In this document: positions 10,999 through 61,699 of the stretch, piece by piece | Layout: every line of letters begins with the position of its first letter | How positions within the stretch are numbered: the first letter of the stretch is position 1 | From: a virus | Strand: one strand, 5' to 3' | DNA: 64,000 nt | Virus record (IMG/VR): IMGVR_UViG_3300045988_037736 | Span: 32,001-96,000 of that record | Program-made: the position numbers and the translations under genes | The notes under the pieces: model-generated | Seen by the model: only the letters and a program-made list of their open reading frames with translations | Told to the model about the DNA's origin: nothing | The model's database searches: none

Positions 10999-11021
10999 AA
11001 TTTATAAATATTTTTAAGTTA

Positions 11022-12410: not shown

Positions 12411-12413
12411 ATG

Positions 12414-18200: not shown

Positions 18201-19955
18201 TGTATAATTATGTTTATACTAAATAGTCGACCCCTAATCTATCGAGGTAGAGGTTTCTTTTGGCTTTCCATCTACATATACAGGAGATGGCCTAAAGAAC
18301 CAAGATGACATTGCATATGGGTTATTCATGTGCCTTCCTCTCACACTGTAGACAGTAGGATTTAAAACTCCCTAACATATAATATTTCTCTCCGCTGGCT
18401 TAGGGAAAACAACACAAGTTCTAGCCCTTCTTACTCCAGCTTTTAATAATGAGGCAGTTGCATTAGGGAATAACTAAAGTTCCTTAGTATCCACCCCGTC
18501 AGTAGTGCCCCAAAAATATGAATTATTTAACTCTACATCAAGAAAACCATCACCATCACCATCACTATTCCTTATGACTTTGTTTAATGGAATAGGTTCT
18601 GACCATTCTCCAGTCTTAAACTAAAATTGAACTCCTAATCTATATGTTTCTCCTGCCTTAAAATGACCAGGCTTAAACTATGGTAGATAAGGATAGTATT
18701 TATTTATACCCTAATTATCATAAGTATCTTCGGCTAAAAAACAATCTGTTAACCCTAAAGAGTCCCCATTTTCAGCCTCTTCCTATTGAAGTAATGTAGT
18801 TAGTTCTTTAGTATTTTTCTGAACAGTAATGTTTCCATAAAACATCACTCCTTCTTTGCTAGTGATAGTTCCAGCTAATATTGTTTGTCCCCCAGTATAT
18901 AATAGTTTAGCAGGGTCTTCTATTGAACCAGTAAGACCAGTATCTGTATATTCAATTGTTTTTACCAGCTAATCCTCAGAACCAAACACATCATACCAGT
19001 ATTCTCCTTCAGCACTTTCCTCCTAGCAATCTTTTAAGTCTAAGTCAGCTACAATCTTAACTGTAGGCTATGCGTCTAGTGAAGTTCTATGTATAGAATA
19101 AACCCTTATATAATCAAAGTTATCAACATTTTCTACTTTAATTGTGAAAGAAGTTATAACCTTCTCTTCTGGATTACCAGCTCTATCATAATTCCTTATA
19201 TACTATATGGGAGATACATAGAATATGTTACTTTCTTGCCCATACTTATTAAAGTATGTAAGAGCATATTGAATTACTCCAGGAGAAAATTCTCCATGAC
19301 TGGAACTTCTACCTACCAGTACTCTTTCTTTTAACTATAGGTTCTATACAAAATCAAATGGAGACTCAGCTCTGTATATCCAATTTCCTTTTTCATACCA
19401 CTTTTCTAGATTTTCTATAACTTCCTAGGAAACTCCCTCACTTTTCTATGGATTTGAGAAATTAACTCCGTCTACTATAACTTTACTAGCTATATCTTCA
19501 GGAAGTTTCAACTCTGGGGCAGTTATATTAATAACTCTAGGCTGGTTAATTCCATCTGTCCAATACAACTTATTCACAAGAACTGACTCACTATCCCCTA
19601 ATATTTCTAGAGGGTGATTAGCATCAAGACCTAGCACTCCTTCAAATAGAGTAACTTTAATCCACTCCCCTTTATCTTCATGGAGTCTATATATTCTAGA
19701 TACTTCCTGAGTGTCATTCTAACTTACAGTAAATACTACTAAGTATCTATTAAGCACACAATGTCCTACGTACTACCCATCAAAAACAACACCAGTGTCC
19801 GTATTTCCCTTCTCATTAGTGATAGAAAACCCAGTATCACTATCCCTATTAGTAAGTCTCACATTTAAAGCATCCCATAAAAAAGACTCATCTTGTCTTG
19901 ATGGGTGAACATCTCTCCTTAGGCCTTTAAATATATGATTATCTGAATACATCAT
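15207..19955 (-). CDS. giant (~1582 codons) tail-fibre/tail-like protein encoded with dozens of in-frame TAG codons
   Basis: Five tracked minus ORFs in this span (ending at 16866, 17511, 19446 and 19773, plus the start MMYSD at 19955) share one frame. Each ends in CTA (=TAG on the minus strand). The first TAA in that frame is at 15207-15209. No other frame has ORFs >=60 aa across 5.7 kb. Confidence 0.55.
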
Positions 19956-19965
19956 GTTAATATAA

Positions 19966-20664
19966 TTAATGAAGTTTGATATACTCCTTAGAACCAAGAG
20001 TTTTAAACCCTTTGCTATGCTCATTAGTCCTGGAGATTAAAGTATTCCAAGAATTAGTGAAAGATTGGAGTTGGTCAATAGAGGGCCTAACAAGGTCAGA
20101 CTGAGCTTGACCCACTGCCCAAGCATATTGTTGTTCTGCGTGTTGCAGAACCTGTTGAGTTATCCTACCAAGCTCAAACTGAACTGTAAAATGTTTTACC
20201 TTTATAAATAGCTCAAGTGCTTCCTCAAAAGAACCATTCTCTGGTATGAGAGGGAATCCTTCTTCATCTGTCGAGAAAGCTCTATAAGCTACTTCTATAG
20301 TTCCTTCCTTCATAGAAGTAAAAATACAACTTCCCTGTAGTTTATAGGTAAGGTCATTATCTCTTGTCTTATCAGGACTCATATGAAATGAATCAGTAGA
20401 GTATCTGAATACTTCATGAAGTACTCCATTACAGTTATGACCAACTGCTCTTACCTGTATCATTTCATAGAAGTCACAAGGTAGCTTACCTCTATAATTC
20501 TCTATCTCAACCTTCTCTGTTTTCTCAAGGAATATTGAGGGCATACCTACCTTCTGTATGAACCTGACAGCATAATTGACTGCCCTTTCTAAAGATAAAT
20601 CTTGTAGCAAGGGATTATCCATCAGGTTATCAAGAACTTGTCTTATGCTTATATATTTTGTCAT
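19966..20664 (-). CDS. hypothetical protein 232 aa
   Basis: Clean ORF, TAA stop 10 nt upstream of the next gene's start. Confidence 0.65.
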   Translation of the reverse strand: MTKYISIRQVLDNLMDNPLLQDLSLERAVNYAVRFIQKVGMPSIFLEKTEKVEIENYRGKLPCDFYEMIQVRAVGHNCNGVLHEVFRYSTDSFHMSPDKTRDNDLTYKLQGSCIFTSMKEGTIEVAYRAFSTDEEGFPLIPENGSFEEALELFIKVKHFTVQFELGRITQQVLQHAEQQYAWAVGQAQSDLVRPSIDQLQSFTNSWNTLISRTNEHSKGFKTLGSKEYIKLH

Positions 20665-38318: not shown

Positions 38319-39274
38319 TGCATTGCCTCAATAGTGATTAATACTTTGCTTGGGTCAGTTTGGATGTTAGCTATTATCTTAAGATAATTCCAACTATCTT
38401 CATTACCAGCTACAATGCTAGGACTATTAAATGTCTTTTGAATAGGACCCATTGAAACCTGAGGGCAATTAACTTCAAAATCTCCATTTGAAGTGTGAAC
38501 AGTCAGAACTACATTCGAAGCTTTTTTGAACTGAGCCACCCCTACAGAGTCAGTTATCTCTTTATTTATTATAGTTGTAGAAGTTATTTCAGCTAAGTTA
38601 ATAACCCCTAAATCATAAAATAATTCAGAATGGTCAAAGTGGTCAGCATCCCTTCTACAAGCTCCATCCGCAGTTAATATGTAATGCACTCTGTTACCTG
38701 ATGCTGTAGTGATGGTAGCTTCTCCACCTGCATTAGGATGCCAAGAACCTACTCCAATGCCATAGTCAGCATGAACAAGGAACTATGTTCCTGCCACCCT
38801 AGACAGCTGTTCTCTATTATATGCTTCAATCTCAGGAGAGTCACCTAGTTCAAGGTCAACATAGGTAGGAAGTAGAGTAAGGTCAATAACTCTAGTCTAC
38901 TTTACAAGCCAATTCTCATTGTAGTCTACATTGAAAATAATAGCCTTGCCATCGGCAATTGCTGTTACTTGACCATTATAAAACGTTGCTAAAATTTTGA
39001 GTGGCGCGTCGCGGTCTCTATTTACAAGTATAACAGGTACATAGTCATGTAGGGGACTCAGTTCTCTCTCTTCAAACTTTAACTTAGCCTCTGGATTGTC
39101 TTCTCCTATCGTTAATATTATATCAGTTATCTCCTCCTAGCCATCTTGTATCACCGAACTTACTATATCAGTCCATTTGCCATTGTTATGGTATTGAAGT
39201 TTGTCATTATGGAGCCACAGACTATTGGTAGGAGGGGCTGAATTTGAATGTATTATATTATCAAATTTTCTCAT
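38315..39274 (-). CDS. hypothetical protein ~319 aa with 3 in-frame TAG (C-terminal part = ORF 38315-38689)
   Basis: Start MRKFDNIIHSN overlaps the portal TAA (TAATG). Frame is continuous if TAG is sense. Confidence 0.5.
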
Positions 39275-41673
39275 TACTTACTAGTATTTGGTTTCTTATT
39301 AATCTATTTTCTTTTGAGTTCAGCATCAGTTTGAGCTTTCTTCTTATCAAAGGCTAACCTTTCTCTGTCAAGTTTGAGCCTCTCATCAAACTCTCTCATC
39401 TTTTCAAACAGATTAGCTCTTGCCTCTTCAGAAAACTCCTGCTCTTGGATGCCATCTTCCTGACTTTGAGAACCTATACCTGCTATAAGTATCTTAGTCT
39501 CATTATCTCTCTGATTCATTGTATCTTTGAGCTGCATTTCAGCTTCCCTTATCTGAGCTTCCATCTGAGCCTATTGTTGCTGAGCCTGTAATTGCTGCTG
39601 TTGAGCTTCCTGCTGTCTTTGCATAAGCTCCTGTTCATTCTTCTCAACCATTCTCTGTTTTTCAGCAAGAGAAGAGCTATTATAGAGCTTCATGATAGTG
39701 GAGAAGGTAAGAGTCTGATTCTGCAAAGCTGCCTGAGCAAGCATATCCATCTTCTGCTGTAACTCCTGTAGTCCATTACTATTATCTACAACAAGGCCAT
39801 AATCATTTTCAGAGAACTCATCTCCATCTATGTCCATAACCTTACTTGAATTATCAGAAAGAATATACTGGAACTTCTTACTTCTGCCTCTTAAAGCTAT
39901 CTTAGCTGTTTCAAGGAATGCCTCAAGAACCCTCTTCTTTACATCATCATGTATGATAAAGAGCCATTCAGTTATATGAGAAGATTGTAAGGTAGCTCTT
40001 TCGACACCACCAACAGTCTCTCTATTACTTATCTGACCTTCTCTTTGCCTAGAAATACCAGCCACATCAGACATTTCCATCTTGATAAACTCAAGAAGAT
40101 TGGTATATTGCTGTATAGTATTACCAAGTTCAGCATTGACAACTCCAGAACTTGCATTGTTAAGAGCACCTGCAAGCTTACCTGTAGCAGCACCAATATT
40201 GCCTTCCTTAAAACTATCTGTAACTACAATACCATTAGTCTTAGCAAAGTACATCCATTTCTCTATCTCCCATCCTTTAGGAACCTTAGCAAGGTCAAGG
40301 TTAATAAGCATACCCCAGTTTCTTGAGATTAGCTTGTTGAGCCTATCATGAATTGTATCATAGAGATAGTTATAGGGCTTCATCATATCAACAAGAGAGA
40401 AAGGCTTGTTGTCATTAAGGTTATAGATAGAACCTATAATACCAAAATGGCACCTTGAAGGATTGGATAGTCTGTTATACTGAACTACTCTAGGTCTCAT
40501 GTTGACATAGATGTCATTACCTATCTTTGTCCCTTCCCAGGCTTCATTGATATATAATATCTTTTCCTCCTCACCTTTGTCCTTATCTATAACGTAAGTT
40601 TCTGGGTAGAGATTAAATACCTCTTCACCTGTCTGAGGGTCGTAAGACTTAACTTTCTTAATTCTCCTTCTTGATTTCCAGTAAACTCTAAGTACCCTTA
40701 TATTTCCTGCAACATCAAAAGGAAGAAGTGAAGTGCCTACACCATCTGTCATTCCTATGGGGTCCCAGAAGAAACCTTCCTGAGAAGTAAATTCTTCCCC
40801 TATCATGTGCCCATTTACAAACCCCATTCTATCATCTATGTTATCCATAGAGTCAGTTACTTGGTCTGTGTTATTGGGCATCTTTTCTATGTACTCCATG
40901 TCCTTTTTGGTAAGGACATCATAATAAGTGTCTATGATTTTACCAGGACTCCAATAGTCCTCAAGTACAATCATATCAGCATCCTCAATCCTGTTACTAT
41001 ATCCTGACTTGAATACTCTGACTTTAAGAGGATTTAGTCTTTCTATGATAGGTTCACCACCTACAATATCACATTGGTAAATCTCTTCACCTACTGCCAT
41101 TGCATCAGTGAAACCTTGATTAAAGAGGAAGGGGAAGTTGAGTTCCTTGGAATAGTGGTTAAGGAGAGCATTAGCTCTCACTTCTCTCATATCTTGCCAC
41201 TCAAATGTAAAGAAGTCATTGAGCTTCTCTAGCTCTGCATTGAACTCTTCCTCTGACTGAGTCTCTTCAGATAACAGTTGCTGTACTCTTGCAAGTAGTT
41301 CCTGCTTCTTGTTGTTCTCTATTTCAGAGATAGCATTTGGATTAGTTACAACTACCCTATAGTCAAATACTCTCTTGGACTCTTCTCCCCTAAGAACATT
41401 TAATTTACTATTCATTATAGGGTAATGCTGAATCCTTTCAGGTATGTAACCTGCCTTTATATTATCAGGGTTCAATACCATTGCAAGGTCACTCATGTGA
41501 AGCCTACCATTAAGTAAATCATAGTTGATTTTCTTATGTATCACACTCTTCCTTACCAAAGAATAGTTGAAAAATGTCTTAGAGTCAGCCCAGTCAAGGT
41601 GCTTCTTTCTCCAAGCCTTATTCTTTCTGGAGAATGGCAGTTGTTGTGGGGGTAAATTTGTGAAATCACTCAT
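39274..41673 (-). CDS. portal protein candidate (~799 aa; ORFs 39571-41673 + 39304-39564 + tail joined through 2 TAG)
   Basis: 700-aa ORF immediately downstream of the terminase. First TAG sits inside a poly-Gln run (QQQQLQAQQQ-TAG-AQMEAQ). True TAA at 39274-39276. Confidence 0.5.
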
Positions 41674-41773
41674 ATATTCTTCAACTTAAATGTGCTGCAA
41701 AGGTAAGCAAAACCTTTAACTTGTGCAAGCCCATAAGTAAAATATTAAGTCTTAGTACTCTTTTTTGCTAAAT

Positions 41774-44700
41774 TTACTGTATATACCCTTGGGAGTAATT
41801 CCTTTGGAAGAAAGAATCATTGCCTAAGTATGAACTACTGACTTCCTCCTGTGCCTTAGCATTAAGATTATCTCTATACAGTATAATCTTCTCTTGTCTA
41901 TACAGCATAACCATACCTAATGCCCTGATTCTATCCACATTAAGTTCAGGAGTGTAGGAAATTAACTCTTCAAGTAATGCTCTATTTCTTAGAGAATAGA
42001 GCCTTGGAATATTGACCTCTTTCTCTTCTCCATCCTCCTTTATTATAGTTGGAACTGGCTGAAGTAGCCAATCCCTTATCAGGTTATTAGCATAATTGTT
42101 GATAGTAGCATTCGCATTGATACCTTTTGCATTTGAGCCAAAGGCAGAATACTTAATCATCTGTTTGTCTCTTAAATATTCAGGAGTATCTGCCAGTAGG
42201 TGTGTGCATTCCATTCTGCTAAAGTAACCATACAGGCCCTTCTTATTGGATTCATACATGCACTTGGCATTATAGAATAGACACAGCATTCTTACTATCT
42301 CAAAGTTATCATCTGCAAATGCCTGCCTACCAGTGTATTCTGCTACAATTCTGTCAGTAAACAGGTCAAGTACAAAGGTTGAAGAAAGAGAAGAAGACTC
42401 TGCCTAATCATTATCCACAGGGTCATGGCCTATAATATATCTCATATTGAAATCATCCCCATTTGCTTGTTTCTCAGGCATTTCAAATATCTCAATAGCA
42501 CCTACTGTTGAATTGTCAACTCCATACTTTCTGATAGGCACATCATTACCTATTCTAAACTCTACCTTATTACCACTTGCTAGGGCAAGATTACCTATGT
42601 AAACATCATCAAAAGCATGAGGGTCTGAGTCAAGTTGAGCCAATCTCTCAGTAAGAGCTACTGTAGGAAAGTAGGCAGCCTTCACTTTAATGATAGCTTC
42701 AGCTGGTGTAATTGGGTCCTCGGCAATAACTCTTAATACTGACTTAGGGTCAGCAGAATATTTAGCTTTGTGTCTTGCCAACAGAATTTCTATGAGAGCC
42801 TTTGTTACATCAGAAACACCATCCTTGTTGTAACATCCTGCCCTATTTACATAAGAAGGAAAGAAAAATCCAAAGGTAGGCTTTCCTTGCTTAGGTCTGT
42901 CATAGACATTCTCAATAGCCAGAATATTGTAACCATCTGGATTGTAAAGAAGAGTTTTTGCCGAACTGAAGTCTGACTCATCCTCAGCAGCAGTATTATG
43001 AGTTACTATATTGTTAGCCAAGTAGGTATGACTTAATCCAGCAGTTAAATTATATACTTCTTGTTCACCTATCTCTTCTACAGAAGTAACTTTGTGAACT
43101 ATTATATCCTCTGGATATTTTTGAGCCTTCATACTCGGATTGCTATTATAATAGTCCATTATCCTTTTAAGGCAATCTCTCTTGTGCGGAACAAGAAGTT
43201 GAAGCACACCACACACTCTTGTACAATTATGTCTCCCTGATATAGATAGAGTAAACCAAGAATTTCTATCTTTCCTATCAGAACATAGTTTTGGCTTAGT
43301 CTCCACAATAGTGCCAACTACTCCAAATTTTCTCCACAGTACTTTAACTTGCTCTAATATTTTCCTATTGCTTTGAGTTAAAGATATATATCCGTCTCTA
43401 TTAAAGCTTATACTACCATCAGTATCATATAATCCAGATAGCAATAGTGAGGTATCATCTCTTGTAAGAGTCTAATAGTTGATAGGAAGCCTTTTATTGG
43501 ATTTTACTTGCCCCTAAATACCTAATTCTCTTAATTTATTACAAATACCTTTAATTCTTATATCCTCGTATATTTTTCCTTTCTTGGTAATATGAGTAGC
43601 AGATAATGACCATTCATATCTATGCTTTACATAGTCTAAAAGCTCTTTATCCTCAGAACTATACTTGGGGGATTGCCTTAATCCATAAGAACCATCTCCA
43701 ATAAGCATACCTACTAATCTAGGGTCAAACATGGTATCTGTCCCAAATATTGGAACTTCCCTACTCTCTATAATTCTATCTCCTACACTTAAAGCTCCAG
43801 CATTTTTGAATACTTCTTCATAATACCTTATAGACCCATTATGATTCATTCTTTGTTTCTGAGTAAGAATTGGATGGTCTGTAGAGCATCTAAGTTCATT
43901 TCCATTACTCAGTTTAATAAGTACACATGGTTTTTTAGCAATACTTATAGAACTCATTATAGGTTCTTTGGTAATCCCTCTTGTGAGGTGAATATTAGGT
44001 TCAGTACCTGACTCAAAGGAGTCTGTAAATCCTATGATACCATCCTCTCTCTTTAAATCCTCTATATTGATATTCCTGCCATCTAATGTCCATACCTTAG
44101 TACCAGCACATACACAACCTACAAGGTACATTGTAGCAAATGTATAGTCACCATCTTCTACAGACTTTCTTGTGATGTCATACAGGGATAGAAGTCCCTT
44201 AAATGAACCCATCTCCTCGAATAGAATCCAACCTCTCTTACCTCTTAACTTCTCTGAGTCATCCTTTGCAGAAACAGCAAGCACCTGATTCAATGACCCA
44301 CTTTCAATACCAAACTCATCCTTGTAGCCCATCTGCCATGCCATCTCATTAGGAGAGTTCTTTAACATGAGCCTAGGGAATGGAGTATTTTTGAAGGAGA
44401 AGTTAATTCCAGGTTTGAACTTAGAGAGTGTGCCATCCTTACTGTCACTAAGATACTCTTTCTGATAAGCAGTAAGTACAGTAATAACCCTCCTCTTTAC
44501 TTCAGTAGATTCACCAAGTATAAGGTTGTGAGACATTATACTTGCAAGACTATATGACTTTGCACAATTATGAGTAGTTATAAAGTCCCCTACTAAATAA
44601 CAGGAGTCTTTAGAGTCTACAGTAACACATTTACAAGGAGATACCCCAGCATACTCAATATTGACTATGGCAGTTTTGTTCTTTCTTGATAAAGCATTGG

Positions 44701-46180
44701 TGCTACTATAATGTACACCACTCTTCTTCCTTGGCAAATTAAACAGTTCTTCTCCACCATATACTGCTATTTCATAGCAATCAGAGCATTGTATGTAACC
44801 ATTAAAAGCTTTATACCTTGCTCTGCTCTTAGATATCTTGGTGTTATATCCAAGACTTCTAGCTATAAAATCCACATCTTCGATTAGTCTTTTTGAAATA
44901 GAATTTAGTGTAGGTACTCCTCCATGTATAGAGCCATCTGTATCAAATAGCCCTTTTAGGACTTTTAATCTTACATCCCTTGAGTTGTACTTGTATTCTT
45001 CAGGAATAAACTTATCTATAGATTTTGCATTATTCAGTCCATAAGACTGCAGGATACTATTCCAATTAGGAATATGTACTCTATAAGAATATTTACCTGC
45101 CCACTTAGTATATTTGTAGGGAATATAGTTCTTTTCTATATCAAAGTCCTTATCTATTTGGGTAAAATAGCAAGAACCATGCCTAAAGCACCCATCCCCT
45201 AATAGAAGTCCAAATGTATAAGGTTCTACCAGAGTATCTTTATATGGCAAGTTTATTCCTTCATTCCCAGGAATGAAACAGTTATATTCAATACCAGAAG
45301 GAATCCTATAAGAGGGAGTTCTATTAGTCTTGTAATTAGACAATAGCCAAGCTGTATTGACTGTCATATTCTTCCCCTTCCTCTCTATATTCCATAAGTG
45401 GTCATCAGTAGCAAACACCGTTCTGCCATCCCTAAGAGTTATCTTGTAGTAAGGAGAGACTTGGTCGTAAGGTATATCTATAACAGTACAGACAGAATTA
45501 TCTGTAGCATATAATTTATCTCCTATCTTAATATCCTTCCACAGCTTCCATCCTTCTGGGGTAAACACCTTCTGGAAATAGGGGTGAGCACCCCTCTTTG
45601 CAAGTTCTATGGCATGTTTACCAGCCTCTCTTGCTTGATGAAGATAGTGAAATCTCCAATAGATTCCTTCAAAGAAGAAGGGGAAAGACTCAACTCTGAC
45701 AGCTTTCCTTGTGCCAGAAATTACCTTATTTACCATCATGGGACAGTAATTAAGAAACCAATAAAGGAATCCTGTGACCCATTCTCCATCACTCTCCCTT
45801 ACATAACCCTCTCTACATCTCCTCATCTCCTCATCCCAGTGCTTTCTGTATTCACTGTTAGGATTAGAATTTGGTCTTAGAAAAGTATAGCAGCCATGCT
45901 TCATAAAGTGTAAGGCTGGTTGTCTGAAATAATCCATATCCTCAAGTATATGAGGATTGGCAAGGTCTACTATAATCCTTCCTTGCTCATCTCTTGGTCT
46001 ATCCTTAGCATATACCCTATTAGGAGAGATAAGTCTTTTTATAAGTTCTACACTATTTATAGTGTCCAATAACTCCTCCTTGACCTCCTCAGGTAAAGAC
46101 CCAAGGAGTTCATCAGTCAAGGGGGTCTGGTACTCATTCATTTCAATAGCCGAGGTATTCTCCATAGATAATATCTTCAA
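41774..46180 (-). CDS. terL: terminase large subunit interrupted by two inteins, each carrying a LAGLIDADG homing endonuclease. 3 in-frame TAG (two inside intein 2, one in the C-terminal extein).
   Basis: Three same-frame ORFs (43514-46180, 42404-43444, 41774-42289) are separated only by CTA (=TAG). Intein 1 runs ...AHPYFQKVFTPEGW...ATDDHLW...LLLGDGCF...LKGLFDTDGSI...VGDFITTHN|C. Intein 2 runs CVCAGTKVWTLDG...STDHPILT...LVGMLIGDGSY...LSGLYDTDGSI...NNIVTHN|T. C-terminal nuclease motif YIIGHDPVDND. Walker-B-like ILFEEMG. Confidence 0.65.
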
Positions 46181-46556: not shown

Positions 46557-47064
46557 CTCTTACCTTATTGCTCTGAGCAATTTCCTTGGCAATAGCTGCT
46601 TCAGCTTCATTCAAATCTTTCACAAGAGTAGGAATCTGCTTGATAGTTGCAGTGATAGTATTGAGAGTATAGATAGGTTTACCCTTATCATCAAGGGCAC
46701 CAAGGTCTATTTCCCTCAATAGAGTCCTCAGCTTATCAACTGCCACTCTGGTATCTTCAAGAAGTAATGCAGATGCTGGCTTGAAAGTCTTATAGAACTC
46801 CATTGCCTCAAGTACAAGGTTATCAGGCTCCCAGTCATTAGGTAAGCCTTCACCTTCCTTAATAGAAGCCTTCCTACTTTCCTCATCTATAATGTACTGA
46901 TAGTCACTTCTTGGGTCAGCCATAAAATATATGTAGGAAATCTCGGCTATTGCTCTATTTTTGTTTGCAGACCTGTCCCTGTTCCATATCTTCTTAAAAG
47001 GAGTTAATGCTAAAGCTTCAGGAGATATGATTACCTTATAACCTTCAAATTTAAGTAGTTTCAT
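46522..47064 (-). CDS. hypothetical protein ~180 aa (internal start MKLLKFEG preferred over the tracked start at 47160)
   Basis: The tracked N-terminus overlaps the GIY-YIG gene by 110 nt. The internal ATG removes the overlap. Confidence 0.5.
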   Translation of the reverse strand: MKLLKFEGYKVIISPEALALTPFKKIWNRDRSANKNRAIAEISYIYFMADPRSDYQYIIDEESRKASIKEGEGLPNDWEPDNLVLEAMEFYKTFKPASALLLEDTRVAVDKLRTLLREIDLGALDDKGKPIYTLNTITATIKQIPTLVKDLNEAEAAIAKEIAQSNKVRGAQEKAMYEDL

Positions 47065-47716
47065 TTTTATATTTCCATTTATAACCTCCAGCTGATGGTC
47101 TTTTACCTCTAGCACATCTTGATATGTGAGTCTCCAAAACTCCAGTATCTCTAGCTGCATCAGCTATTGATGGGTATGTACAAATTATATTTCCTTCTTT
47201 ATCACATTTAACTATTTCAATTAAGTCATGATAACTGTGATTAAGTCTCATCTTAAGCTTAGCCTCTTCAGACTTAGGCTTTCCTTGTAAGGATAAACTT
47301 ATCTTTAATTTATGCTCTATTGTGAGAGGAACACCTTTGAATCTGGAACTTACTAAGAGCTTAACATGCTCAGGTATCTTTTTACCTTTGCCTTTAACAC
47401 TCATTTTTCTTCTAGTCTCTTCAGAATGCCTATATCCAAGAGACCCTTCCCCGCCATCAGTTATATTATAAGATATGCCTAGCTCCTTATATTCTTTAAT
47501 TAAGGTTATCTCTAACAGATTAGCTTCCTCTTTAGTTAGTCCTTCTTTTATTATATCATGCTTAAAGTTATCCCACCCATACTTTTCTATGGCTCTCTTA
47601 AAGATACCTGTTTTGTATCCTCTCCCCTCTTTCCATCTCTTTCCCACATTAAAAGAGGTCTGACCTATGTAGACCTTGCCATTAACTTTATTGGTGTGTT
47701 TATATACTGTGTACAT
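47051..47716 (-). CDS. GIY-YIG homing endonuclease (third copy)
   Basis: MYTVYKHTNKVNGKVYIGQT motif. Confidence 0.75.
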   Translation of the reverse strand: MYTVYKHTNKVNGKVYIGQTSFNVGKRWKEGRGYKTGIFKRAIEKYGWDNFKHDIIKEGLTKEEANLLEITLIKEYKELGISYNITDGGEGSLGYRHSEETRRKMSVKGKGKKIPEHVKLLVSSRFKGVPLTIEHKLKISLSLQGKPKSEEAKLKMRLNHSYHDLIEIVKCDKEGNIICTYPSIADAARDTGVLETHISRCARGKRPSAGGYKWKYKNETT

Positions 47717-47766
47717 ATCAAAAAAAAATAGCCTGTACAGAACTTAATCTATACAGGCTTAGATTA

Positions 47767-49742: not shown

Positions 49743-49757
49743 AATATTTCGATTTAG

Positions 49758-49830
49758 TTGCGGGAGGAGGACTCGAACCTCCGACCTTCAGGTTATGAGC
49801 CTGACTAGCTACCACTGCTAACACCCCACA
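49758..49830 (-). tRNA. tRNA-Met/Ile2 (anticodon CAT)
   Basis: Cloverleaf by hand: T-arm GGAGG-TTCGAGT-CCTCC, anticodon loop CTCATAA. Confidence 0.6.
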
Positions 49831-49836
49831 ATATAG

Positions 49837-49907
49837 AGCAGGATAGGAGAATCGAACCCCCAAATCCACTTTGGAAGAGTGGCATTTTACCATTAAACTA
49901 ATCCTGC
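49837..49907 (-). tRNA. tRNA-Gly (TCC)
   Basis: Perfect 7-bp acceptor GCAGGAT/ATCCTGC. Anticodon loop CTTCCAA. Confidence 0.7.
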
Positions 49908-49916
49908 ACTTACTTG

Positions 49917-49989
49917 AGCTTCCTAGAGGACTCGAACCCCTGACATACTGAGTACAAAACAGTAGTTCTACCAGCTGAACTAAGGAAGC
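49917..49989 (-). tRNA. tRNA-Thr (TGT)
   Basis: Acceptor GCTTCCT/AGGAAGC. T-arm AGGGG-TTCGAGT-CCCCT. Anticodon loop TTTGTAC. Confidence 0.65.
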
Positions 49990-50313
49990 TTTCCTAAAGA
50001 TTACTCAGGATTAATAAGTTTATTAAGTTCTTCTTTAAAAGTTTTGAGCCACTCTTTGTCTTGGTTGTTGGGGCTATTAAGAATAATTTTAGTCTGTGTT
50101 AGCACCATCCTAGCAATAGGGTGTGGTATCTTTACCTGTTCCATAATTATATTTTTTTTTATTTTCTAACACTTATTTCATTTAATTTATCATAAAAATC
50201 AAGAACAAACTGTTCATCCTGCAACAGTGAGTTACTTACCTCTTTGTCAATCTGCTCTAGCTAGAGCATTACATTGGACATAAACCATTTTAAAGCTTCC
50301 TTATTCATTGTGA

Positions 50314-50385
50314 TTAAAGTTAGTCGCCCCACTCTGGCTCGAACAGAGACCAAAGGATTTAGAGTCCTCTGTGCTAACCATTACA
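50314..50385 (-). tRNA. amber suppressor tRNA-Sup (anticodon CTA), built on the tRNA-Gln scaffold
   Basis: TGCCTCA-TG-GTGT-AATGGTTA-GCAC-A-GAGGA-CTCTAAA-TCCTT-TGGT-CTCTG-TTCGAGC-CAGAG-TGGGGCG-A. Anticodon 34-36 = CTA with U33/A37. Positions 8-26 are 18/19 identical to tRNA-Gln(TTG) at 54395-54466. Confidence 0.75.
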
Positions 50386-50890
50386 CCATGAGGCAATATT
50401 TTATTAACAATGCAAAGGTATGAAAAATAATTTAAATTACCAAATAAATTGATAATAAATTTTTAATAAAAGTGTAAATAAAATGGAGATAATATAGCAT
50501 AAGCTACGGTCATATACCAAGATTGATTAGACTCCAGGTCTACACTAGCAGTTCTTTCTTTTTGAACACCAAGAGAATATAATAAATTGTGAGTTCTCCA
50601 TTCATTAAGTAAGCTAAACATAGTTCTGTTATTAATAGAACTGTATGGGTAAAATCTAGCTTTTAAATGAATGAGAAACTACTTCATATCAGATAATGAA
50701 GTGATTTTATAGGAATCATAAATAGCTATATTATTATCAGATATGTCTACTTGATATTTCTGTTTATTATACTAAACTGTGTATTTCATACTTTTACAAA
50801 TAGTAAAGGGGTTATGATAACATGAATTACGCCACCTGAATATTTACAGTAAAACTCAATGTTATATAAATACTTAATTTCTTATTTCAG

Positions 50891-50977
50891 TACCCCCTGA
50901 GAGACTCGAACCCTCACACTACTATTACTTCATACTGGTTCCTAAGACCAGCGTGTCTACCATTCCACCAAGGGGGC
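50891..50977 (-). tRNA. tRNA-Leu (TAG), type II
   Basis: Anticodon arm CTGGT-CTTAGGA-ACCAG with a long variable arm. Confidence 0.6.
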
Positions 50978-50981
50978 ATTG

Positions 50982-51063
50982 TACCTCTGGAGGGATTTGA
51001 ACCCTCAAGGATTAAATCCGAGGGATTTTAAGTCCCTTGTGTTTACCATTTCACCACAGAGGC
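50982..51063 (-). tRNA. tRNA-Leu (TAA), type II
   Basis: Anticodon arm AGGGA-CTTAAAA-TCCCT. Variable arm GGATT/AATCC. Confidence 0.65.
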
Positions 51064-51078
51064 TTATTGTCTCTCTTT

Positions 51079-51678
51079 TTAGAGAGAAGTATATTCTGCT
51101 TTAGCATCAAAACTTGGACATGCTTTATTTGCAAACTCCCTATGGCCATGTATTGTAGCATTAGGGTACTTTGCTTTAAGCTGTTTAAGAAGCTGTACTA
51201 GAGCAGCTTTTTGAGCTTCAGTTCTAGTATCTTTTGGAGTTTTTCCATCCTTGGCACATCCTCCGATATAGCATACTCCAATAGACATTGTATTGTGCCC
51301 AGTACAGTGTGCTCCAGATATAGCCTCTGGTCTACCAGCATGTATTGACCCATCTCTATAGATTACATAATGATAACCTATATCAGAGAAACCTCTTTGA
51401 AGGTGCCATTGCTTAATCTGCGCAGTAGTAAAGTCCTCACCTTCAGGAGTAGCAGAACAATGAACTATAATTTCCTTTATATTCCTCTTGTTCTGAGTTA
51501 CATTCAGCTTAGACCATGTGTTATTTCCCACTATGCCATCTACAACAAGACCATTAGCCTTCTGAAATTCTTTGACTGCTTCTTCTGTGAGAGGTCCAAA
51601 TATTCCATCATCTTTCAGATTAAGCTTCCTCTGAAGGAGCTTTACATTAGGACCTTTATCCCCTCTTTTTATTACCAT
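51079..51678 (-). CDS. endolysin: N-acetylmuramoyl-L-alanine amidase (Amidase_2/PGRP) with an N-terminal peptidoglycan-binding repeat
   Basis: GDKGPNVKLLQRKLNL..DGIFGPLTEEAV..ANGL is a PG_binding_1-like domain. HCSAT...AHCTGHN...IGVCYIG is the amidase core. It is embedded in the tRNA array. Confidence 0.7.
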   Translation of the reverse strand: MVIKRGDKGPNVKLLQRKLNLKDDGIFGPLTEEAVKEFQKANGLVVDGIVGNNTWSKLNVTQNKRNIKEIIVHCSATPEGEDFTTAQIKQWHLQRGFSDIGYHYVIYRDGSIHAGRPEAISGAHCTGHNTMSIGVCYIGGCAKDGKTPKDTRTEAQKAALVQLLKQLKAKYPNATIHGHREFANKACPSFDAKAEYTSL

Positions 51679-51701
51679 ATCTTTCTCTTTTTACTATGTA
51701 G

Positions 51702-51775
51702 TGGAACCTCAGGGAGTCGAACCCCAGCCCTCAGAGCTTCAATCTGATGTGACAAACCATCTACACCAAAGTTCC
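51702..51775 (-). tRNA. tRNA-Phe (GAA)
   Basis: Acceptor GGAACTT/AGGTTCC. Anticodon arm TCAGA-TTGAAGC-TCTGA. Confidence 0.65.
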
Positions 51776-51840
51776 AATATTATCTATTCAGGTCTCTACC
51801 CCTGTCAGGCTTATAGATAAAAGCCAAAGTTCTATTGAAG

Positions 51841-51921
51841 TGGGAGCAAAAGGACTCGAACCTATGAACTCTTAGAGGGTTGATTTACAGTCAACTGCGA
51901 TTGCCGCTACGCGATACTCCC
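51841..51921 (-). tRNA. tRNA-Tyr (GTA), type II
   Basis: Anticodon arm GTTGA-CTGTAAA-TCAAC with a long variable arm. Confidence 0.65.
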
Positions 51922-52104
51922 ATATTTATTATCAAATAACTTGTCAGAGAGGAAGGAGGAACTATCCTTAAGGGACAGGTATAAATACATCACCTGTACA
52001 CCTTATAGAATAGTTCTCAGCAGTCATTCTAAAATAAGCTTTGACTGCTTTCTTAATAAATCTAAGTACTCTCATAACACTGTTATTTAATTAAAATGTT
52101 ATGT

Positions 52105-52176
52105 CTTCCTACAAGGATTTGAACCTTGAACCTTCTGATTAAGAGTCAGTAGCTCTACCATTGAGCTATAGGAAGT
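52105..52176 (-). tRNA. tRNA-Lys (CTT)
   Basis: Acceptor TAGGAAG/CTTCCTA. T-arm CAAGG-TTCAAAT-CCTTG. Anticodon loop CTCTTAA. Confidence 0.6.
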
Positions 52177-52288
52177 GGTAGAAGGGTATTTGTTAAGGAG
52201 TTATTTATCCCTTCCTTCTCCTTAGTAGTCAATTGTAGCTGTTTTTACGGAGGTTTTTCCATGGATAGACTACCTGCTCCTCCAAGGA

Positions 52289-52360
52289 CTCTAGGGTGGG
52301 AATTGAACCCACAAATACTGGTTTTGCAGACCAGCTCCTAACCATTCGGAATCCTAGAGA
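52289..52360 (-). tRNA. tRNA-Cys (GCA)
   Basis: Acceptor CTCTAGG/CCTAGAG. T-arm GTGGG-TTCAATT-CCCAC. Anticodon arm CTGGT-CTGCAAA-ACCAG. Confidence 0.7.
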
Positions 52361-52426
52361 TATAGACATAGCAGTTTGAAACCACCCCAGGGACTACTAT
52401 GCCACTCATGAGTATTGTATGGATGG

Positions 52427-52496
52427 CAGGGCTTGAACCTGCGTGTGACCAACTACCCTTTCTAGTGTGTATAAGACACAGGGGATACATCCATAT
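52427..52496 (-). other. atypical tRNA-like element/pseudogene. Good acceptor and T-arm plus a perfect TGTGT-CTTATAC-ACACA hairpin (anticodon TAT would be Ile/AUA), but no D-arm.
   Basis: Acceptor ATGGATG/CATCCAT and T-arm GCAGG-TTCAAGC-CCTGC are present. The core cannot be folded into a canonical cloverleaf. Confidence 0.3.
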
Positions 52497-52502
52497 GTTG
52501 GG

Positions 52503-52573
52503 GTGCTAGGTGAGAATTGAACTCACATCTTCCACATTCACAGTGTGGTGCTTTACCATTAAGCTACTAGTAC
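52503..52573 (-). tRNA. tRNA-His (GTG)
   Basis: T-arm GTGAG-TTCAATT-CTCAC. Anticodon arm CCACA-CTGTGAA-TGTGG. Discriminator C. Confidence 0.7.
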
Positions 52574-52576
52574 AGT

Positions 52577-52650
52577 TGGGATAGTAGGACTTGAACCTAC
52601 GGTCTTCTGAATATCAGTCAGATGCTTTAACCATCTAAGCTATATCCCAA
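52577..52650 (-). tRNA. tRNA-Ile (GAT)
   Basis: Acceptor TGGGATA/TATCCCA. Anticodon arm TCTGA-CTGATAT-TCAGA. Confidence 0.7.
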
Positions 52651-52653
52651 TGT

Positions 52654-52729
52654 GGCAAAGGTGGAAGGAATCGAACCCTCACTTGTGAATTTGGAGTTCA
52701 CTGTGCTACCATTAACACTACACCAATGA
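52654..52729 (-). tRNA. tRNA-Trp (CCA) with two U-U mismatches in the acceptor stem and a genomically encoded 3' CCA
   Basis: Anticodon arm GTGAA-CTCCAAA-TTCAC. T-arm GAGGG-TTCGATT-CCTTC. 3' ...CACCTTTG-CCA. Confidence 0.5.
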
Positions 52730-52736
52730 GTAATGA

Positions 52737-53213
52737 TTATTTTCTTTTGTTTTTACCTGCGTATGTACTTGTCTGTGAATGACAGTTAGGGCATAAGAAT
52801 CTTAAATTCTCTAATCTATGGTCATTATTTATACCATTTATGTGGTCTAGATGTAGAGATAGTGGCTGACCATTCCACGAGGATATACCACATTTACTGC
52901 ATTCATATTTTAGCAACTTATTGTCTATAAGCCTTCTTTTAAGTGAAGCTATATTAGCATAGCTACTATTCTTTACTAGTATGTTCTCAATGGGATATAC
53001 TTGCGTTGGAGATTTTATGCTTACATCTCCAAAGTGAGATGTTGAACATCCTAGTTCTTGGATTCTTCTTTTCAAGACATCTTGTGAAGAATCCCCTTTA
53101 GTAGTTAGTCCTAATGCTCTCAGGGTATCAGAGTAACTATTAACTCTATTTATTAAATTTATAAACTCCTTATCAGAGATACTATATACTTTACTTGTAC
53201 CTTTTCTTCTCAT
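52737..53213 (-). CDS. HNH homing endonuclease
   Basis: C-terminal HLDHINGINNDHRLENLRFLCPNCHSQ motif. Paralog of the plus-strand HNH at 61700-62116. Confidence 0.8.
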   Translation of the reverse strand: MRRKGTSKVYSISDKEFINLINRVNSYSDTLRALGLTTKGDSSQDVLKRRIQELGCSTSHFGDVSIKSPTQVYPIENILVKNSSYANIASLKRRLIDNKLLKYECSKCGISSWNGQPLSLHLDHINGINNDHRLENLRFLCPNCHSQTSTYAGKNKRK

Positions 53214-53215
53214 AG

Positions 53216-53258
53216 TGGTAGGTAAAAGAATCGAACTTTTACTAGTACCATACCTACC
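53216..53258 (-). other. tRNA minihelix-like element (acceptor stem + T-arm only, 43 nt) directly upstream of the HNH gene
   Basis: GGTAGGT-ATGGTACTAGT-AAAAG-TTCGATT-CTTTT-ACCTACC-A. Perfect 7-bp acceptor and 5-bp T-stem with a canonical T-loop. No D-arm or anticodon arm. Confidence 0.45.
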
Positions 53259-53374
53259 AGTTGCTACCTTTAACCACCCCCTGTAGCTAGGTTGAGTTAT
53301 ACGACACTCAGAACAGAGCTAATATCTGAACATGTTACGTTGAGTCTTACACTAGTACTATTCTCTTTATTAGG

Positions 53375-53444
53375 CTGGGATAGAGAGAATCGAACTCTCA
53401 CCAAGAGATTAACAGTCTCACGCTCGACCTTCGAGCTATATCCC
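53375..53444 (-). tRNA. tRNA-Asn (GTT)
   Basis: Acceptor TGGGATA/TATCCCA. T-arm GAGAG-TTCGATT-CTCTC. Anticodon loop CTGTTAA. Confidence 0.65.
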
Positions 53445-53530
53445 AAAGTGGGCAGTTTCTTTATCCTCTAACTGCCGAAAAGAGGGACTAACAACAGTCC
53501 TACAATTTTATGAAAACATGAAAAACAAAG

Positions 53531-53604
53531 TGGACAATGAGGGACTTGAACCCTGAACTTCTCCTTGCAAAGGAGATGTGTTAGCCAATTACACCACAAC
53601 GCCC
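53531..53604 (-). tRNA. tRNA-Ala (TGC) with an imperfect acceptor
   Basis: Anticodon arm TCTCC-TTTGCAA-GGAGA. T-loop TTCAAGT. Acceptor has one U-U mismatch and two G-U pairs. Confidence 0.5.
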
Positions 53605-53610
53605 ATTAAG

Positions 53611-53683
53611 TAGAGTAGACAAGACTCGAACTTGCAGTATCACTTCATCCCAAATGAAGGGGGTTACCTATTACCCTACTACT
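53611..53683 (-). tRNA. tRNA-Pro (TGG)
   Basis: Acceptor AGAGTAG/CTACTCT. T-arm GCAAG-TTCGAGT-CTTGT. Anticodon arm CTTCA-TTTGGGA-TGAAG. Confidence 0.6.
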
Positions 53684-53691
53684 CTATGTTG

Positions 53692-53777
53692 AGGAGAGCA
53701 TTGGACTCGAACCAAAGCCAAATTAATGACCACACTATTTAGCAGATAGGTTTATCACCTTGATAAATTACTCTCCA
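53692..53777 (-). tRNA. tRNA-Ser (GCT), type II, unusual D/variable arms
   Basis: Perfect acceptor GGAGAGT/GCTCTCC. T-loop TTCGAGT. Anticodon loop CTGCTAA. Its 5' end overlaps the last 10 nt of the FTR-like CDS. Confidence 0.45.
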
Positions 53778-53965
53778 AGTTTCTTATATAAACCGCAGCA
53801 ACAGTGGTCTAGTACTCTGTAGTTTGAGCAAGGACAGTGCTTATCTTCAGAGTTATTCTGACAAGGACACAGTCCATTGTTCTGTTCAACTCTTTTAAGT
53901 ATTGAGTTGACTACTTTATCATTAGGGTTGAGCACCCACCCTTCTTTTCTCAGAATTGTTATCAT
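53768..53965 (-). CDS. ferredoxin-thioredoxin-reductase catalytic-subunit-like Cys-rich protein (65 aa from the internal ATG; the tracked ORF starts at a TTG inside tRNA-Ser)
   Basis: CPC-x11-CPC-x10-HCCC spacing (LCPCQNNSEDKHCPCSNYRVLDHCCCG) resembles the FTR catalytic-chain CPC...CPC...CHC signature. Confidence 0.45.
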   Translation of the reverse strand: MITILRKEGWVLNPNDKVVNSILKRVEQNNGLCPCQNNSEDKHCPCSNYRVLDHCCCGLYKKLGE

Positions 53966-53967
53966 AG

Positions 53968-54054
53968 AGGAAGCCTGAGGACTCGAACCCCACCCACTTT
54001 CACATGAGCATTCAGTTTTCAAGACTGCTTCTATCCCTGATAGATTAGACTTCC
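53968..54054 (-). tRNA. tRNA-Ser (TGA), type II
   Basis: Acceptor GGAAGTC/GGCTTCC. T-arm TGGGG-TTCGAGT-CCTCA. Anticodon arm CAGT-CTTGAAA-ACTG. Confidence 0.5.
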
Positions 54055-54088
54055 ATTTGGCTCCTCTGAGCCTTTGTTACATAGCCAG

Positions 54089-54162
54089 CAGCCCATGGGG
54101 GAATTGAACCCCATCCCTCACATTGACAGTGTGATATGCAAAACCATTACACTTCATGAGCT
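54089..54162 (-). tRNA. tRNA-Asp (GTC)
   Basis: Acceptor AGCTCAT/ATGGGCT. Anticodon arm TCACA-CTGTCAA-TGTGA. Confidence 0.6.
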
Positions 54163-54170
54163 ATATATTG

Positions 54171-54243
54171 TAGTGCCACTGGGGTTTGAACCCAGATTAC
54201 TGCCTTGAAAGGGCAGTTTCCTGACCATTTAGAAGATGGCACC
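54171..54243 (-). tRNA. tRNA-Glu (TTC)
   Basis: Good cloverleaf: D-arm TTCT/GGAA, anticodon arm CTGCC-CTTTCAA-GGCAG, T-arm CTGGG-TTCAAAC-CCCAG. Confidence 0.7.
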
Positions 54244-54318
54244 ATGCACCCTACTTGCACCTTCACAGGCTAGGTAGGTAATGATTCTCACTTCTTTGCC
54301 ATTTACATTCTTTTCACG

Positions 54319-54390
54319 AACAAGTTTGTACTCCCTGTAAGACTCGAACTTACAACTTAGGGCTTAGAAGACCCTTGTTCTTCCATTGAA
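54319..54390 (-). tRNA. tRNA-Arg (TCT)
   Basis: T-arm GTAAG-TTCGAGT-CTTAC. Anticodon arm AGGGT-CTTCTAA-GCCCT. Confidence 0.7.
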
Positions 54391-54394
54391 CTAA

Positions 54395-54466
54395 GGGAGC
54401 ATAGTTGCCACTAAAGGACTTGAACCCTTACACTCAGAACCAAAATCTGATGTGCTGACCATTACA
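54395..54466 (-). tRNA. tRNA-Gln (TTG)
   Basis: TGCCACT-TG-GTGT-AATGGTCA-GCAC-A-TCAGA-TTTTGGT-TCTGA-GTGT-AAGGG-TTCAAGT-CCTTT-AGTGGCA-A. Same architecture as the CTA suppressor. Confidence 0.75.
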
Positions 54467-54701
54467 CCAAGTGGCAATGTTCTCTTGAATTACAGTGCAA
54501 AGTTAGGTAAAATTTTTGATATATGCAAATTTTTAGACAGAAAAAAAAGGAGAATCACCACACTCGACGCGTCGGGTACAGGTGGCACGTTCTCCTTCTC
54601 TTTTTTTTTTATTTTGTTAAAATTTTGTGTTGGCTTATGTTTTTTATAAAATACCTGCGAAAATCCTCCTGAGAGACAGGAGTCTATCTGCTTTTATAGG
54701 C

Positions 54702-61269: not shown

Positions 61270-61343
61270 GCCCTCATAGCTCATCAGGATAGAGCAACAG
61301 TTTCCTAAACTGTAGGTGGAAGGTTCGAGTCCTTCTGGGGGTA
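61270..61343 (+). tRNA. tRNA-Arg (CCT)
   Basis: GCCCTCA-TA-GCTC-ATCAGGATA-GAGC-A-ACAGT-TTCCTAA-ACTGT-AGGTG-GAAGG-TTCGAGT-CCTTC-TGGGGGT-A. Confidence 0.7.
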
Positions 61344-61368
61344 CTAAACAATTAAAGTAAGAAGGAAA

Positions 61369-61506
61369 ATGAAAACAGAAACAATGGAGAAAGCAATACT
61401 GATTTTTCAGTGCATAGCAATTACTGTAGCCAGCCTATTCTATTTGATAGGTATGACACTTGATGCCATATATCTAGTAGCATTAGCAATATACGTAAAG
61501 AAGTGA
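61369..61506 (+). CDS. small hydrophobic protein ~45 aa (MKTETMEKAILIFQCIAITVASLFYLIGM...)
   Basis: Short ORF between tRNAs. Below the tracking cut-off. Confidence 0.3.
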   Translation: MKTETMEKAILIFQCIAITVASLFYLIGMTLDAIYLVALAIYVKK

Positions 61507-61513
61507 TGCAAAT

Positions 61514-61552
61514 GGTTCCATAGCTCAAATGGATAGAGCAACAGACTTAAGA
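61514..61552 (+). other. 5' half of a split or disrupted tRNA (acceptor GGTTCCA, D-arm, anticodon stem ACAGA + loop CTTAAGA; anticodon TAA)
   Basis: D-arm TAGCTCAAATGGATAGAGC is near-identical to tRNA-Arg(CCT). The acceptor pairs perfectly with the 3' half at 62118-62152. Confidence 0.4.
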
Positions 61553-61606
61553 TACTTTAACTCTAAGGATTTCATAGTATAGAAATTTATTACTAACTTT
61601 GCATAA

Positions 61607-61679
61607 CTCCCCTTAGTTCAGCGGATAGTAACAATGGTCTTCTAAACCATAAACCCCAGTTCGAGTCTGGGAGGGGAGA
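61607..61679 (+). tRNA. tRNA-Arg (TCT), second copy, on the plus strand
   Basis: Acceptor CTCCCCT/AGGGGAG. Anticodon arm ATGGT-CTTCTAA-ACCAT. T-arm CCCAG-TTCGAGT-CTGGG. Confidence 0.65.
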
Positions 61680-61699
61680 CTAAAATAAATTTATATATT

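Follow-up and report, generated by a model that had tools for sequence, protein, structure and literature searches.

Two putative inteins of different classes in the TAG-containing terminase large subunit gene of a crAss-like phage

Inteins and TAG codons have both been described in the terminase large subunit (TerL) of crAss-like phages. In the Delta group an intein is typical of TerL (Yutin et al. 2021, Nat Commun 12:1044, PMC7886860), and the Delta-group metagenome-assembled genome (cMAG) OBYQ01000140 encodes a two-intein TerL with TAGs in its TerL portions as well as its intein portions (PMC7886860, Fig. 7b). Unlike its closest relatives, the beta-group genome OFRY01000050 gained a tRNA that suppresses TAG, and TAGs started to build up in its TerL (PMC7886860). 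In this study we analyzed a stretch of 64,000 nucleotides (nt) from the IMG/VR virus record IMGVR_UViG_3300045988_037736 (positions 32,001 to 96,000; hereafter the window), in which the terL gene carries two in-frame insertions and three TAG codons. It was compared with a set of 79 TerL sequences, comprising 78 related IMG/VR loci (L002, L060 and others named below) and crAss001. By the published description, the window gene resembles that of OBYQ01000140 in that TerL is in three in-frame parts with two inteins of the Hint-plus-endonuclease type. In contrast to OBYQ01000140, which belongs to the Delta group (Suoliviridae) and has 'multiple' TAGs, the window belongs to the beta group (Steigviridae) and has three; intein classes were left unassigned in PMC7886860. 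Similar to the published description of OFRY01000050, the window and L060 are recoded compared with L002, L051, L003 and L033. The suppressor of OFRY01000050 was attributed to a bacterial source (PMC7886860), whereas that of the window is closest to the phage's own tRNA-Gln. Two inteins together with TAGs in the TerL and intein parts have already been published for related phages.

Taken as a whole, we consider it highly probable that the window gene encodes a TerL precursor that matures by class 3 and class 1 protein splicing, that homing of its inteins is of the LAGLIDADG type, and that TAG is read as glutamine (Gln). The observations behind this reading are where the insertions begin and end, which folds and motifs they have, their catalytic residues, the use of TAG for Gln, and a presence/absence polymorphism accompanied by a co-conversion tract.

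Positions 41774..46180 of the minus strand form one frame of 1468 sense codons followed by TAA, and the sole in-frame stops are the three TAGs. Under the standard code terL shows up as three co-linear open reading frames (ORFs). The parts of the gene, with lengths and positions in amino acids (aa), are as follows.

41774..46165, minus strand: TerL precursor gene, with the TAA stop at 41774-41776 and a probable ATG start at 46165
45590..46165, minus strand: N-extein, aa 6-197, ending in the first half of the Walker A motif (P-loop), ELAKRG, and aligning to crAss001 up to KRG
44567..45589, minus strand: intein 1, 341 aa, putative class 3, LAKRG / AHPYFQKV...GDFITTHN / CAKSYS, double-motif LAGLIDADG
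44117..44566, minus strand: middle extein, aa 539-688, starting with Cys539 (predicted +1 nucleophile, P-loop CAKS) and ending with MYLVG
44213-44233, minus strand: Walker B motif GWILFEE, inside the middle extein
42995..44116, minus strand: intein 2, 374 aa, putative class 1, MYLVG / CVCAGTKV...NNIVTHN / TAAEDES, double-motif LAGLIDADG, containing two TAGs
43514-43516, 43472-43474 and 42404-42406, minus strand: in-frame TAG codons 889, 903 and 1259, respectively
41777..42994, minus strand: C-extein, aa 1063-1468, nuclease domain, holding TAG codon 1259 between DPVDND and AESS

The insertions were mapped by pairwise alignment of the full translation, with TAG taken as Gln, to gp19 of crAss001 (762 aa). 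Exactly two gap blocks resulted, aa 198-538 and aa 689-1062, both in frame, and these insertions are missing from crAss001 and about 65 related loci. An earlier reading of this DNA made from the letters alone (the sequence-only reading) had proposed two Hint-type insertions in TerL, each with two LAGLIDADG motifs; the clean gap blocks, together with the intein folds and motifs described below, bear out both proposals. It had also expected the exteins to align contiguously to crAss-like TerL, and this is the case: the spliced product of 753 aa aligned as a single tblastn piece to the TerLs of crAss001, PhiCrAssBcn and Kehishuvirus (78.8-79.8% aa identity over 98-99% of the length) and matched PHROG 6681 (TerL) in one stretch (3e-94). 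The start at TTG 46180 assumed in that reading did not hold up. Since the relatives L051, L003 and L033 carry TAA at codon 4, the ATG at codon 6 (46165) is probably the start. A Pfam search of the spliced extein gave no family at E <= 0.1, and the name TerL was therefore taken from PHROGs. When the whole gene was compared with GenBank phages by megablast, the C-extein alone matched (77%). The portal gene lies directly downstream of terL, in the same order as in crAss001. Judged by its sequence, the gene is assigned to the Crassvirales TerLs, from a Kehishuvirus-like (Steigviridae, 'beta' crAss-like) Bacteroides phage.

Intein 1 splits the P-loop of the TerL ATPase (AKRG / CAKS), and the insertion point of intein 2 is located about 30 residues past Walker B. 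The N-extein shares 91-97% aa identity with L002, L051 and L060, and for the middle extein identity is 91% to crAss001 and 100% to both L002 and L060. The C-extein shows 84.7% nt identity yet 94.3% aa identity to L002. Because identity is higher at the aa than at the nt level, the C-extein downstream of the TAGs appears to be under purifying selection.

Class 3 inteins are characterized by a Trp-Cys-Thr (WCT) triplet at positions B:12, F:4 and G:5, with the block F Cys as obligate first nucleophile, and they typically reside in ATPase P-loops, such as those of DnaB, RecG, SNF2 and phage terminases (PMC2807308, PMC5050341). Most of them have Ser or Thr at +1 (PMC2807308). The residues of intein 1 that bear on its class are listed below.

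45587-45589, minus strand: Ala198, position 1 of intein 1, with no Cys, Ser or Thr nucleophile at the start
45392-45400, minus strand: block B His261/Trp263 (Trp at B:12)
44627-44629, minus strand: block F Cys518 (F:4)
44567-44575, minus strand: Thr536 (G:5), His537 and Asn538, with Cys539 at +1

As Ala1 is joined by Trp at B:12, Cys at F:4 and Thr at G:5, intein 1 is assigned by its sequence to class 3. The Ala at its start, which the sequence-only reading had pointed out, is real and is explained as a class 3 trait rather than an oddity. A phmmer search with the splicing domain alone (the N-terminal 110 plus the C-terminal 42 residues) found the class 3 M. smegmatis DnaB intein 6BS8 as best solved structure (8.5e-7); the mini-inteins 6RIX and 6QAZ matched too. 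Intein 1 and 6BS8 pair as DDHLW/AQHQW and CKCVTVD...TTHN/VRCVEVD...PTHN, with Trp263, Cys518 and Thr536 each aligned to the 6BS8 counterpart. An AlphaFold2 model based on 27 homologues reached a predicted local distance difference test (pLDDT) score of 94 and a predicted template modeling (pTM) score of 0.91. With this model Foldseek gave PI-SceI as top match (5e-18, template modeling score (TM) 0.66-0.71). Further matches in the Protein Data Bank (PDB) were the TliVMA/PhoVMA inteins, PI-PfuI and I-DmoI, and among mini-inteins gp41-1, MchDnaB-1 and again 6BS8. The LAGLIDADG motifs of intein 1 are GLLLGDG and GLFDTDG (Pfam LAGLIDADG_3 5.5e-10, Hom_end 7e-6), and it contains no TAG codon.

Intein 1 belongs to a large family, as 678 clusters of a representative library of 1.8 billion proteins match it at E <= 1e-30. 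Residues were counted in the 147 most similar cluster representatives, with denominators varying by position. Ala is found at position 1 in 65/69, Trp at B:12 in 133/142, Cys at F:4 in 141/141, Thr at G:5 in 139/141, and the terminal Asn in 140/140. The +1 residue (n=140) is Ser in 69, Thr in 55 and Cys in 16 cases.

Intein 2 is by all appearances a canonical class 1 intein. Its splicing domain was detected by Pfam Intein_splicing (46.3 bits, cut-off 35.8) and TIGR01445 (26.2 bits, cut-off 24.5), and its key residues are Cys689, the block B His769 (STDHP), His1061-Asn1062, and Thr1063 at +1. Among 37 database homologues, neither Cys1 nor the block B His varies (37/37 each), nor does the terminal Asn (14/14); the penultimate residue is His in 13/14, and Thr (12) or Ser (2) occupies +1. 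The LAGLIDADG motifs are GMLIGDG and GLYDTDG (Pfam LAGLIDADG_3 5e-16), and the acidic Asp of each is fully conserved across the family (36/36 and 22/22).

Homologues of intein 2 (CVCxGTKV...THN / T or S) were also found in Gly-rich non-terminase proteins whose function is not known (P0043-P0046, P0053), and the family thus does not seem to be confined to TerL. In another homologue, P0038, half of the endonuclease is deleted.

That the window phage uses TAG as a sense codon for Gln is concluded from the sequence, because a Gln-like tRNA-CUA is encoded and TAG is aligned with Gln in relatives. The tRNA gene is the following.

50323..50395, minus strand: suppressor tRNA with anticodon CUA, found by ARAGORN (labelled 'Pyl'), located in a tRNA array

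Among the tRNAs of the window it is closest to the phage tRNA-Gln(UUG), with 67% identity and nearly identical D-arms. Residues aligned with TAG were tallied in coding-strand ORFs only, against the standard-code phage crAss001. Gln was found at 15/47 positions overall and at 10/18 in well-conserved context, compared with a background of 3.2% Gln. TerL codon 1259 corresponds to Gln in crAss001, L002, L051, L003 and L033, and codon 705 (TAG) of the portal gene to Gln in four close relatives. Conversely, codon 18 is TAG in L060 where the window terL has CAG. In-frame TAGs occur in TerL, the portal protein and many other coding-strand genes; one ORF (15207..20036, minus strand, 1610 codons) holds 40 of them. 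The public homologue P0028, whose contig is L060, was cut off at the same TAGs by gene callers.

Several observations on TAG and the tRNAs in the window may be added. The standard-code portal ORF (39274..41685, minus strand) stops at TAG 705, and readthrough adds about 100 residues, which fits the 806-aa portal protein of crAss001. The ORFs 3826..11001 (minus strand, 2392 codons), 1..3768 (plus strand, 1256 codons) and 11022..12413 (minus strand, 464 codons) contain no TAG, and such uneven use fits a recoding confined to part of the genome. The tRNA array comprises 21 genes (49757..54476, minus strand), including tRNA-CUA and tRNA-Gln(UUG). Two more genes, both for tRNA-Arg, are encoded on the opposite strand (61270..61680, plus strand).

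Two of the three TAGs of terL lie inside intein 2 ahead of its second LAGLIDADG motif (aa 913-924), as the sequence-only reading had stated; codons 889 and 903 are located between the two motifs and precede the second by 24 and 10 codons, respectively. Its further claim that intein 2 is written in the reassigned code holds in that the TAGs are sense codons, but only codon 903 is found at a Gln position, whereas codon 889 is found at a Tyr position. Codon 903, between PINY and TLTRDD, is CAA (Gln) in L069, L070 and L074, and Gln is the commonest residue among homologues (8/25). At codon 889, between LRELGI and GQVK, 26/31 homologues have Tyr ('GIYGQ') and none has Gln; its counterparts are TAC/TAT in L071/L074 and TTA (Leu) in L069/L070. 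The simplest reading is that this TAG arose by a single TAY-to-TAG change, which would amount to a Tyr-to-Gln missense mutation in a TAG-suppressing genome. An enrichment of TAGs in intein 2 was also considered and was rejected, as two out of three are expected there from length alone with P = 0.16. In heavily recoded relatives the homologues of intein 2 carry 9 (L071) and 6 (L074) TAGs, a density like that of their own exteins. Hence, it is a general trait of recoded crAss-like phages that their inteins are written in the code of the host.

Inteins of these two families were found in 11 of the 78 IMG/VR loci, at four TerL sites. Most loci are intein-free, and close relatives have 0-2 inteins each. 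The sites are distributed as follows.

Site a, KRG / CAKS: occupied in the window, L044, L047 and L052
Site b, YLVG / TAAE: occupied in the window, L060, L069, L070, L071 and L074
Site c, FGSN / (A to C)KGIN: occupied in L003 and L033; empty in the window (FGSN / AKGIN, 42116-42148, minus strand, C-extein)
Site d, CMYE / (S to C)NKKG: occupied in L060; empty in the window (CMYE / SNKKG, 42236-42262, minus strand, C-extein)

No intein is present in L002 and L051, whose aa identity to the window is about 95%. The exteins of L060 (IMGVR_UViG_3300045988_064014) share about 99% nt identity with those of the window, and its intein 2 is 99.7% nt identical with the same TAGs. In L060 site a is empty and another class 3 intein of 335 aa resides at site d (locus 8908..9912), where the native +1 Ser is replaced by Cys. 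The terL genes of the window and L060 differ at 28 nt; 16 of these positions fall within 46 nt of site d, and a single one is 3 nt away from site a. The substitution cluster at site d is the pattern expected from co-conversion in homing. Such homing appears to be recent, because L060 lacks intein 1 at about 99% identity and has this tract at site d. An exact search for the empty site-a junction found the L060 contig only, and the same search for the occupied junction gave no match in IMG/VR or the JGI metagenomes. The representative library contains TerL precursors with the same combination of sites a and b (P0076) and with three inteins (P0077). GC content at third codon positions (GC3) is 0.30 in intein 1 and 0.24 in intein 2, versus 0.32-0.38 in the exteins.

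The intein at site c of L003 and L033 is a 333-aa class 3 intein of the AHPY family (approximately 7906..8904) with the native +1 Ala replaced by Cys; the TerLs of these two loci contain no TAG. Another kind of interruption is seen in L056 (IMGVR_UViG_3300045988_055643), the TerL of which is broken at IIGVDP / DNDQAES by an unrelated out-of-frame insert of 774 bp (7585..8358). The insert encodes a 165-aa HNH-like ORF and has no Rfam intron match, and it may represent an unrecognised intron or a gene-splitting endonuclease. In the window, a free-standing homing-endonuclease ORF with GIY-YIG and NUMOD domains (221 aa, 47051..47716, minus strand) is located two genes upstream of terL, and in crAss001 an 'intron endonuclease' gene lies immediately upstream of its own terL. 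As both are near terL, this neighborhood seems to draw several kinds of homing elements.

In the mechanism that we propose, terL would be translated as a precursor of about 1463 aa, with tRNA-CUA allowing its three TAGs to be read as Gln, and two independent protein-splicing reactions would yield mature TerL. In intein 1, the block F Cys518 would act as first nucleophile and attack the Gly197-Ala198 bond, resulting in a branched thioester. Cys539 (+1) would next take over the N-extein, Asn538 would cyclise, and an S-to-N shift would rebuild the P-loop (KRG-CAKS). In intein 2 the order would be Cys689, Thr1063 and Asn1062. Splicing is expected to give ligated junction peptides, e.g. ...DGDYTFATMYLVG-TAAEDESDFSSAK and also DGDYTFATMYLVGTAAEDESDFSSAK, and YIIGHDPVDNDQAESSSLSSTFVLDLFTDR is the peptide expected with Gln at the TAG position. 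Both LAGLIDADG endonucleases look intact and presumably cut intein-less terL during co-infection, upon which the intein would be copied by repair. Intein 2 would have gained its two TAGs in the recoded lineage. That splicing takes place, in which order the nucleophiles attack and that the endonucleases are active is inferred from the sequence.

Some results weigh against this interpretation. Pfam Hint was not significant on intein 1 (E = 0.086), and the NCBIfam intein models did not detect its splicing domain. The Pfam check that the sequence-only reading had suggested thus succeeded for LAGLIDADG in both inteins and for the splicing domain of intein 2, but not for Hint in intein 1. Despite this failure, intein 1 is considered an intein by its modeled fold. 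In intein 2, block F position 4 is Asn, not the usual Asp, as it is in 15/15 homologues. Gln at the conserved Tyr of position 889 may impair the intein 2 endonuclease. In intein 1, Cys at +1 is a minority state within its own family and would allow a class 2 (KlbA-type) reaction, with a direct attack of Cys539 on the N-terminal junction and without the block F Cys as obligate first nucleophile. Ala1 together with Cys+1 is indeed the KlbA arrangement, and a survey from 2009 included one WCT intein only with Cys+1, the mechanism of which was then untested (PMC2807308). In KlbA inteins, however, the triplet is absent and F:4 is Asp, whereas the full WCT triplet is present in intein 1 and nearly invariant in its family, and the closest solved relatives are class 3. 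Moreover, members of the family that reside at other sites combine this core with Ser or Thr at +1, in favor of a single class 3 mechanism common to all of them. A class 2 reaction in intein 1 is thus regarded as improbable.

Far smaller still, in our view close to negligible, is the chance that the TAGs are true stops, with terL broken or split, or that the insertions are removed as RNA introns. The three ORFs under the standard code and the truncation of homologues such as P0028 by public gene callers would fit true stops. Yet all three pieces share one frame, the C-extein past the TAGs seems to be under purifying selection, TAG 1259 corresponds to Gln in five relatives, tRNA-CUA is encoded nearby, and another gene holds 40 in-frame TAGs. 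With respect to introns, Rfam found none in 41000-48000, and both the folds and the splice-junction residues of the insertions are those of inteins. More weight is given to the idea that the inteins splice while one or both endonucleases are decaying, with intein 2 as a fixed resident and TAG 889 as its first lesion, although we hold this to be doubtful as well. It would account for Gln, seen nowhere else in the family, at a position with Tyr in most homologues, and for the finding that intein 2 with the same TAGs is common to both recoded genomes (the window and L060) and was not seen in 95%-identical non-recoded relatives. P0038 with its half-deleted endonuclease also fits this idea. Against it, both LAGLIDADG acidic residues of intein 2 are intact, no frameshift, TAA or TGA occurs across its 374 codons, and Leu at position 889 in L069 and L070 indicates that change is tolerated there. 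Gain and loss within the intein 1 family between genomes of about 99% identity, together with the co-conversion tract, argue for ongoing activity. The reading that we prefer is still that of two splicing inteins with LAGLIDADG homing in a gene in which TAG means Gln.

For annotation, the locus shows that standard-code gene callers fragment an essential gene, terL, and that intein 1 has a class 3 splicing domain which escapes standard hidden Markov model (HMM) libraries; hence, code 15-type translation and intein-aware models are needed. The locus adds a Steigviridae example, crAss001-like and near culturable phages, to the published Delta and Zeta cases. Phages of the crAss001 type can be grown on Bacteroides intestinalis. 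The inteins of crAss-like TerLs include a large class 3 family, at no fewer than four TerL sites. The near-isogenic intein-plus and intein-minus alleles are usable for measuring homing in gut phages. If the history suggested for codon 889 is true, recoding turns a would-be nonsense change (TAY to TAG at a conserved Tyr) into a tolerated missense change. Furthermore, it may tentatively be speculated that recoding acts as a firewall. Because intein 2 acquired TAG codons, it would give a functional terminase only in a TAG-suppressing recipient and so be confined to recoded phages, whereas the TAG-free intein 1 would be free to cross, which would constitute a natural experiment on how selfish elements spread when the genetic code changes. 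On this reading, class 3 inteins would at present be passing between near-identical gut phages, two genomes of about 99% identity being occupied differently at two TerL sites, one of which bears a co-conversion scar.

Our search of the accessible literature found no paper giving crAss-like TerL inteins a class 3 mechanism. Intein 1 resembles the class 3 inteins of mycobacteriophage Bethlehem DnaB, M. smegmatis DnaB (DnaBi1, 6BS8) and mycobacteriophage terminases (TerL1-c/d/e) in the WCT triplet and the lack of an N-terminal nucleophile (PMC2807308, PMC6195587, PMC5050341). Insertion in an ATPase P-loop, phage terminases as hosts and the similarity of the splicing blocks to 6BS8 are further shared features. 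It differs from them by Cys at +1 instead of Ser or Thr and by its AHPY N-terminus. Its host is a Bacteroides phage, whereas those inteins are from actinobacteriophages or an actinobacterium, and in contrast to the mini-intein MsmDnaBi1 it contains a full LAGLIDADG endonuclease. With PI-SceI (the VMA1 intein) it has in common that a double-motif LAGLIDADG endonuclease is embedded in a Hint splicing domain. Sequence identity between the two is about 14-15%, and PI-SceI is a class 1 intein (Cys1) with an extra DNA-recognition region.

As in M. smegmatis DnaB, a class 3 P-loop intein and a class 1 endonuclease-bearing intein are combined in one ATPase (PMC6195587). For M. smegmatis DnaB, redox or zinc control of splicing has been documented (PMC6195587). 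In contrast to that cellular helicase, the host protein in the window is a phage terminase and endonucleases are found in both inteins. No new mechanism is revealed by the locus. Class 3 and class 1 splicing, LAGLIDADG homing and TAG-to-Gln suppression are all ordinary for inteins. The assignment of a crAss-like TerL intein to class 3 is a modest addition to these known systems rather than a new kind of system.

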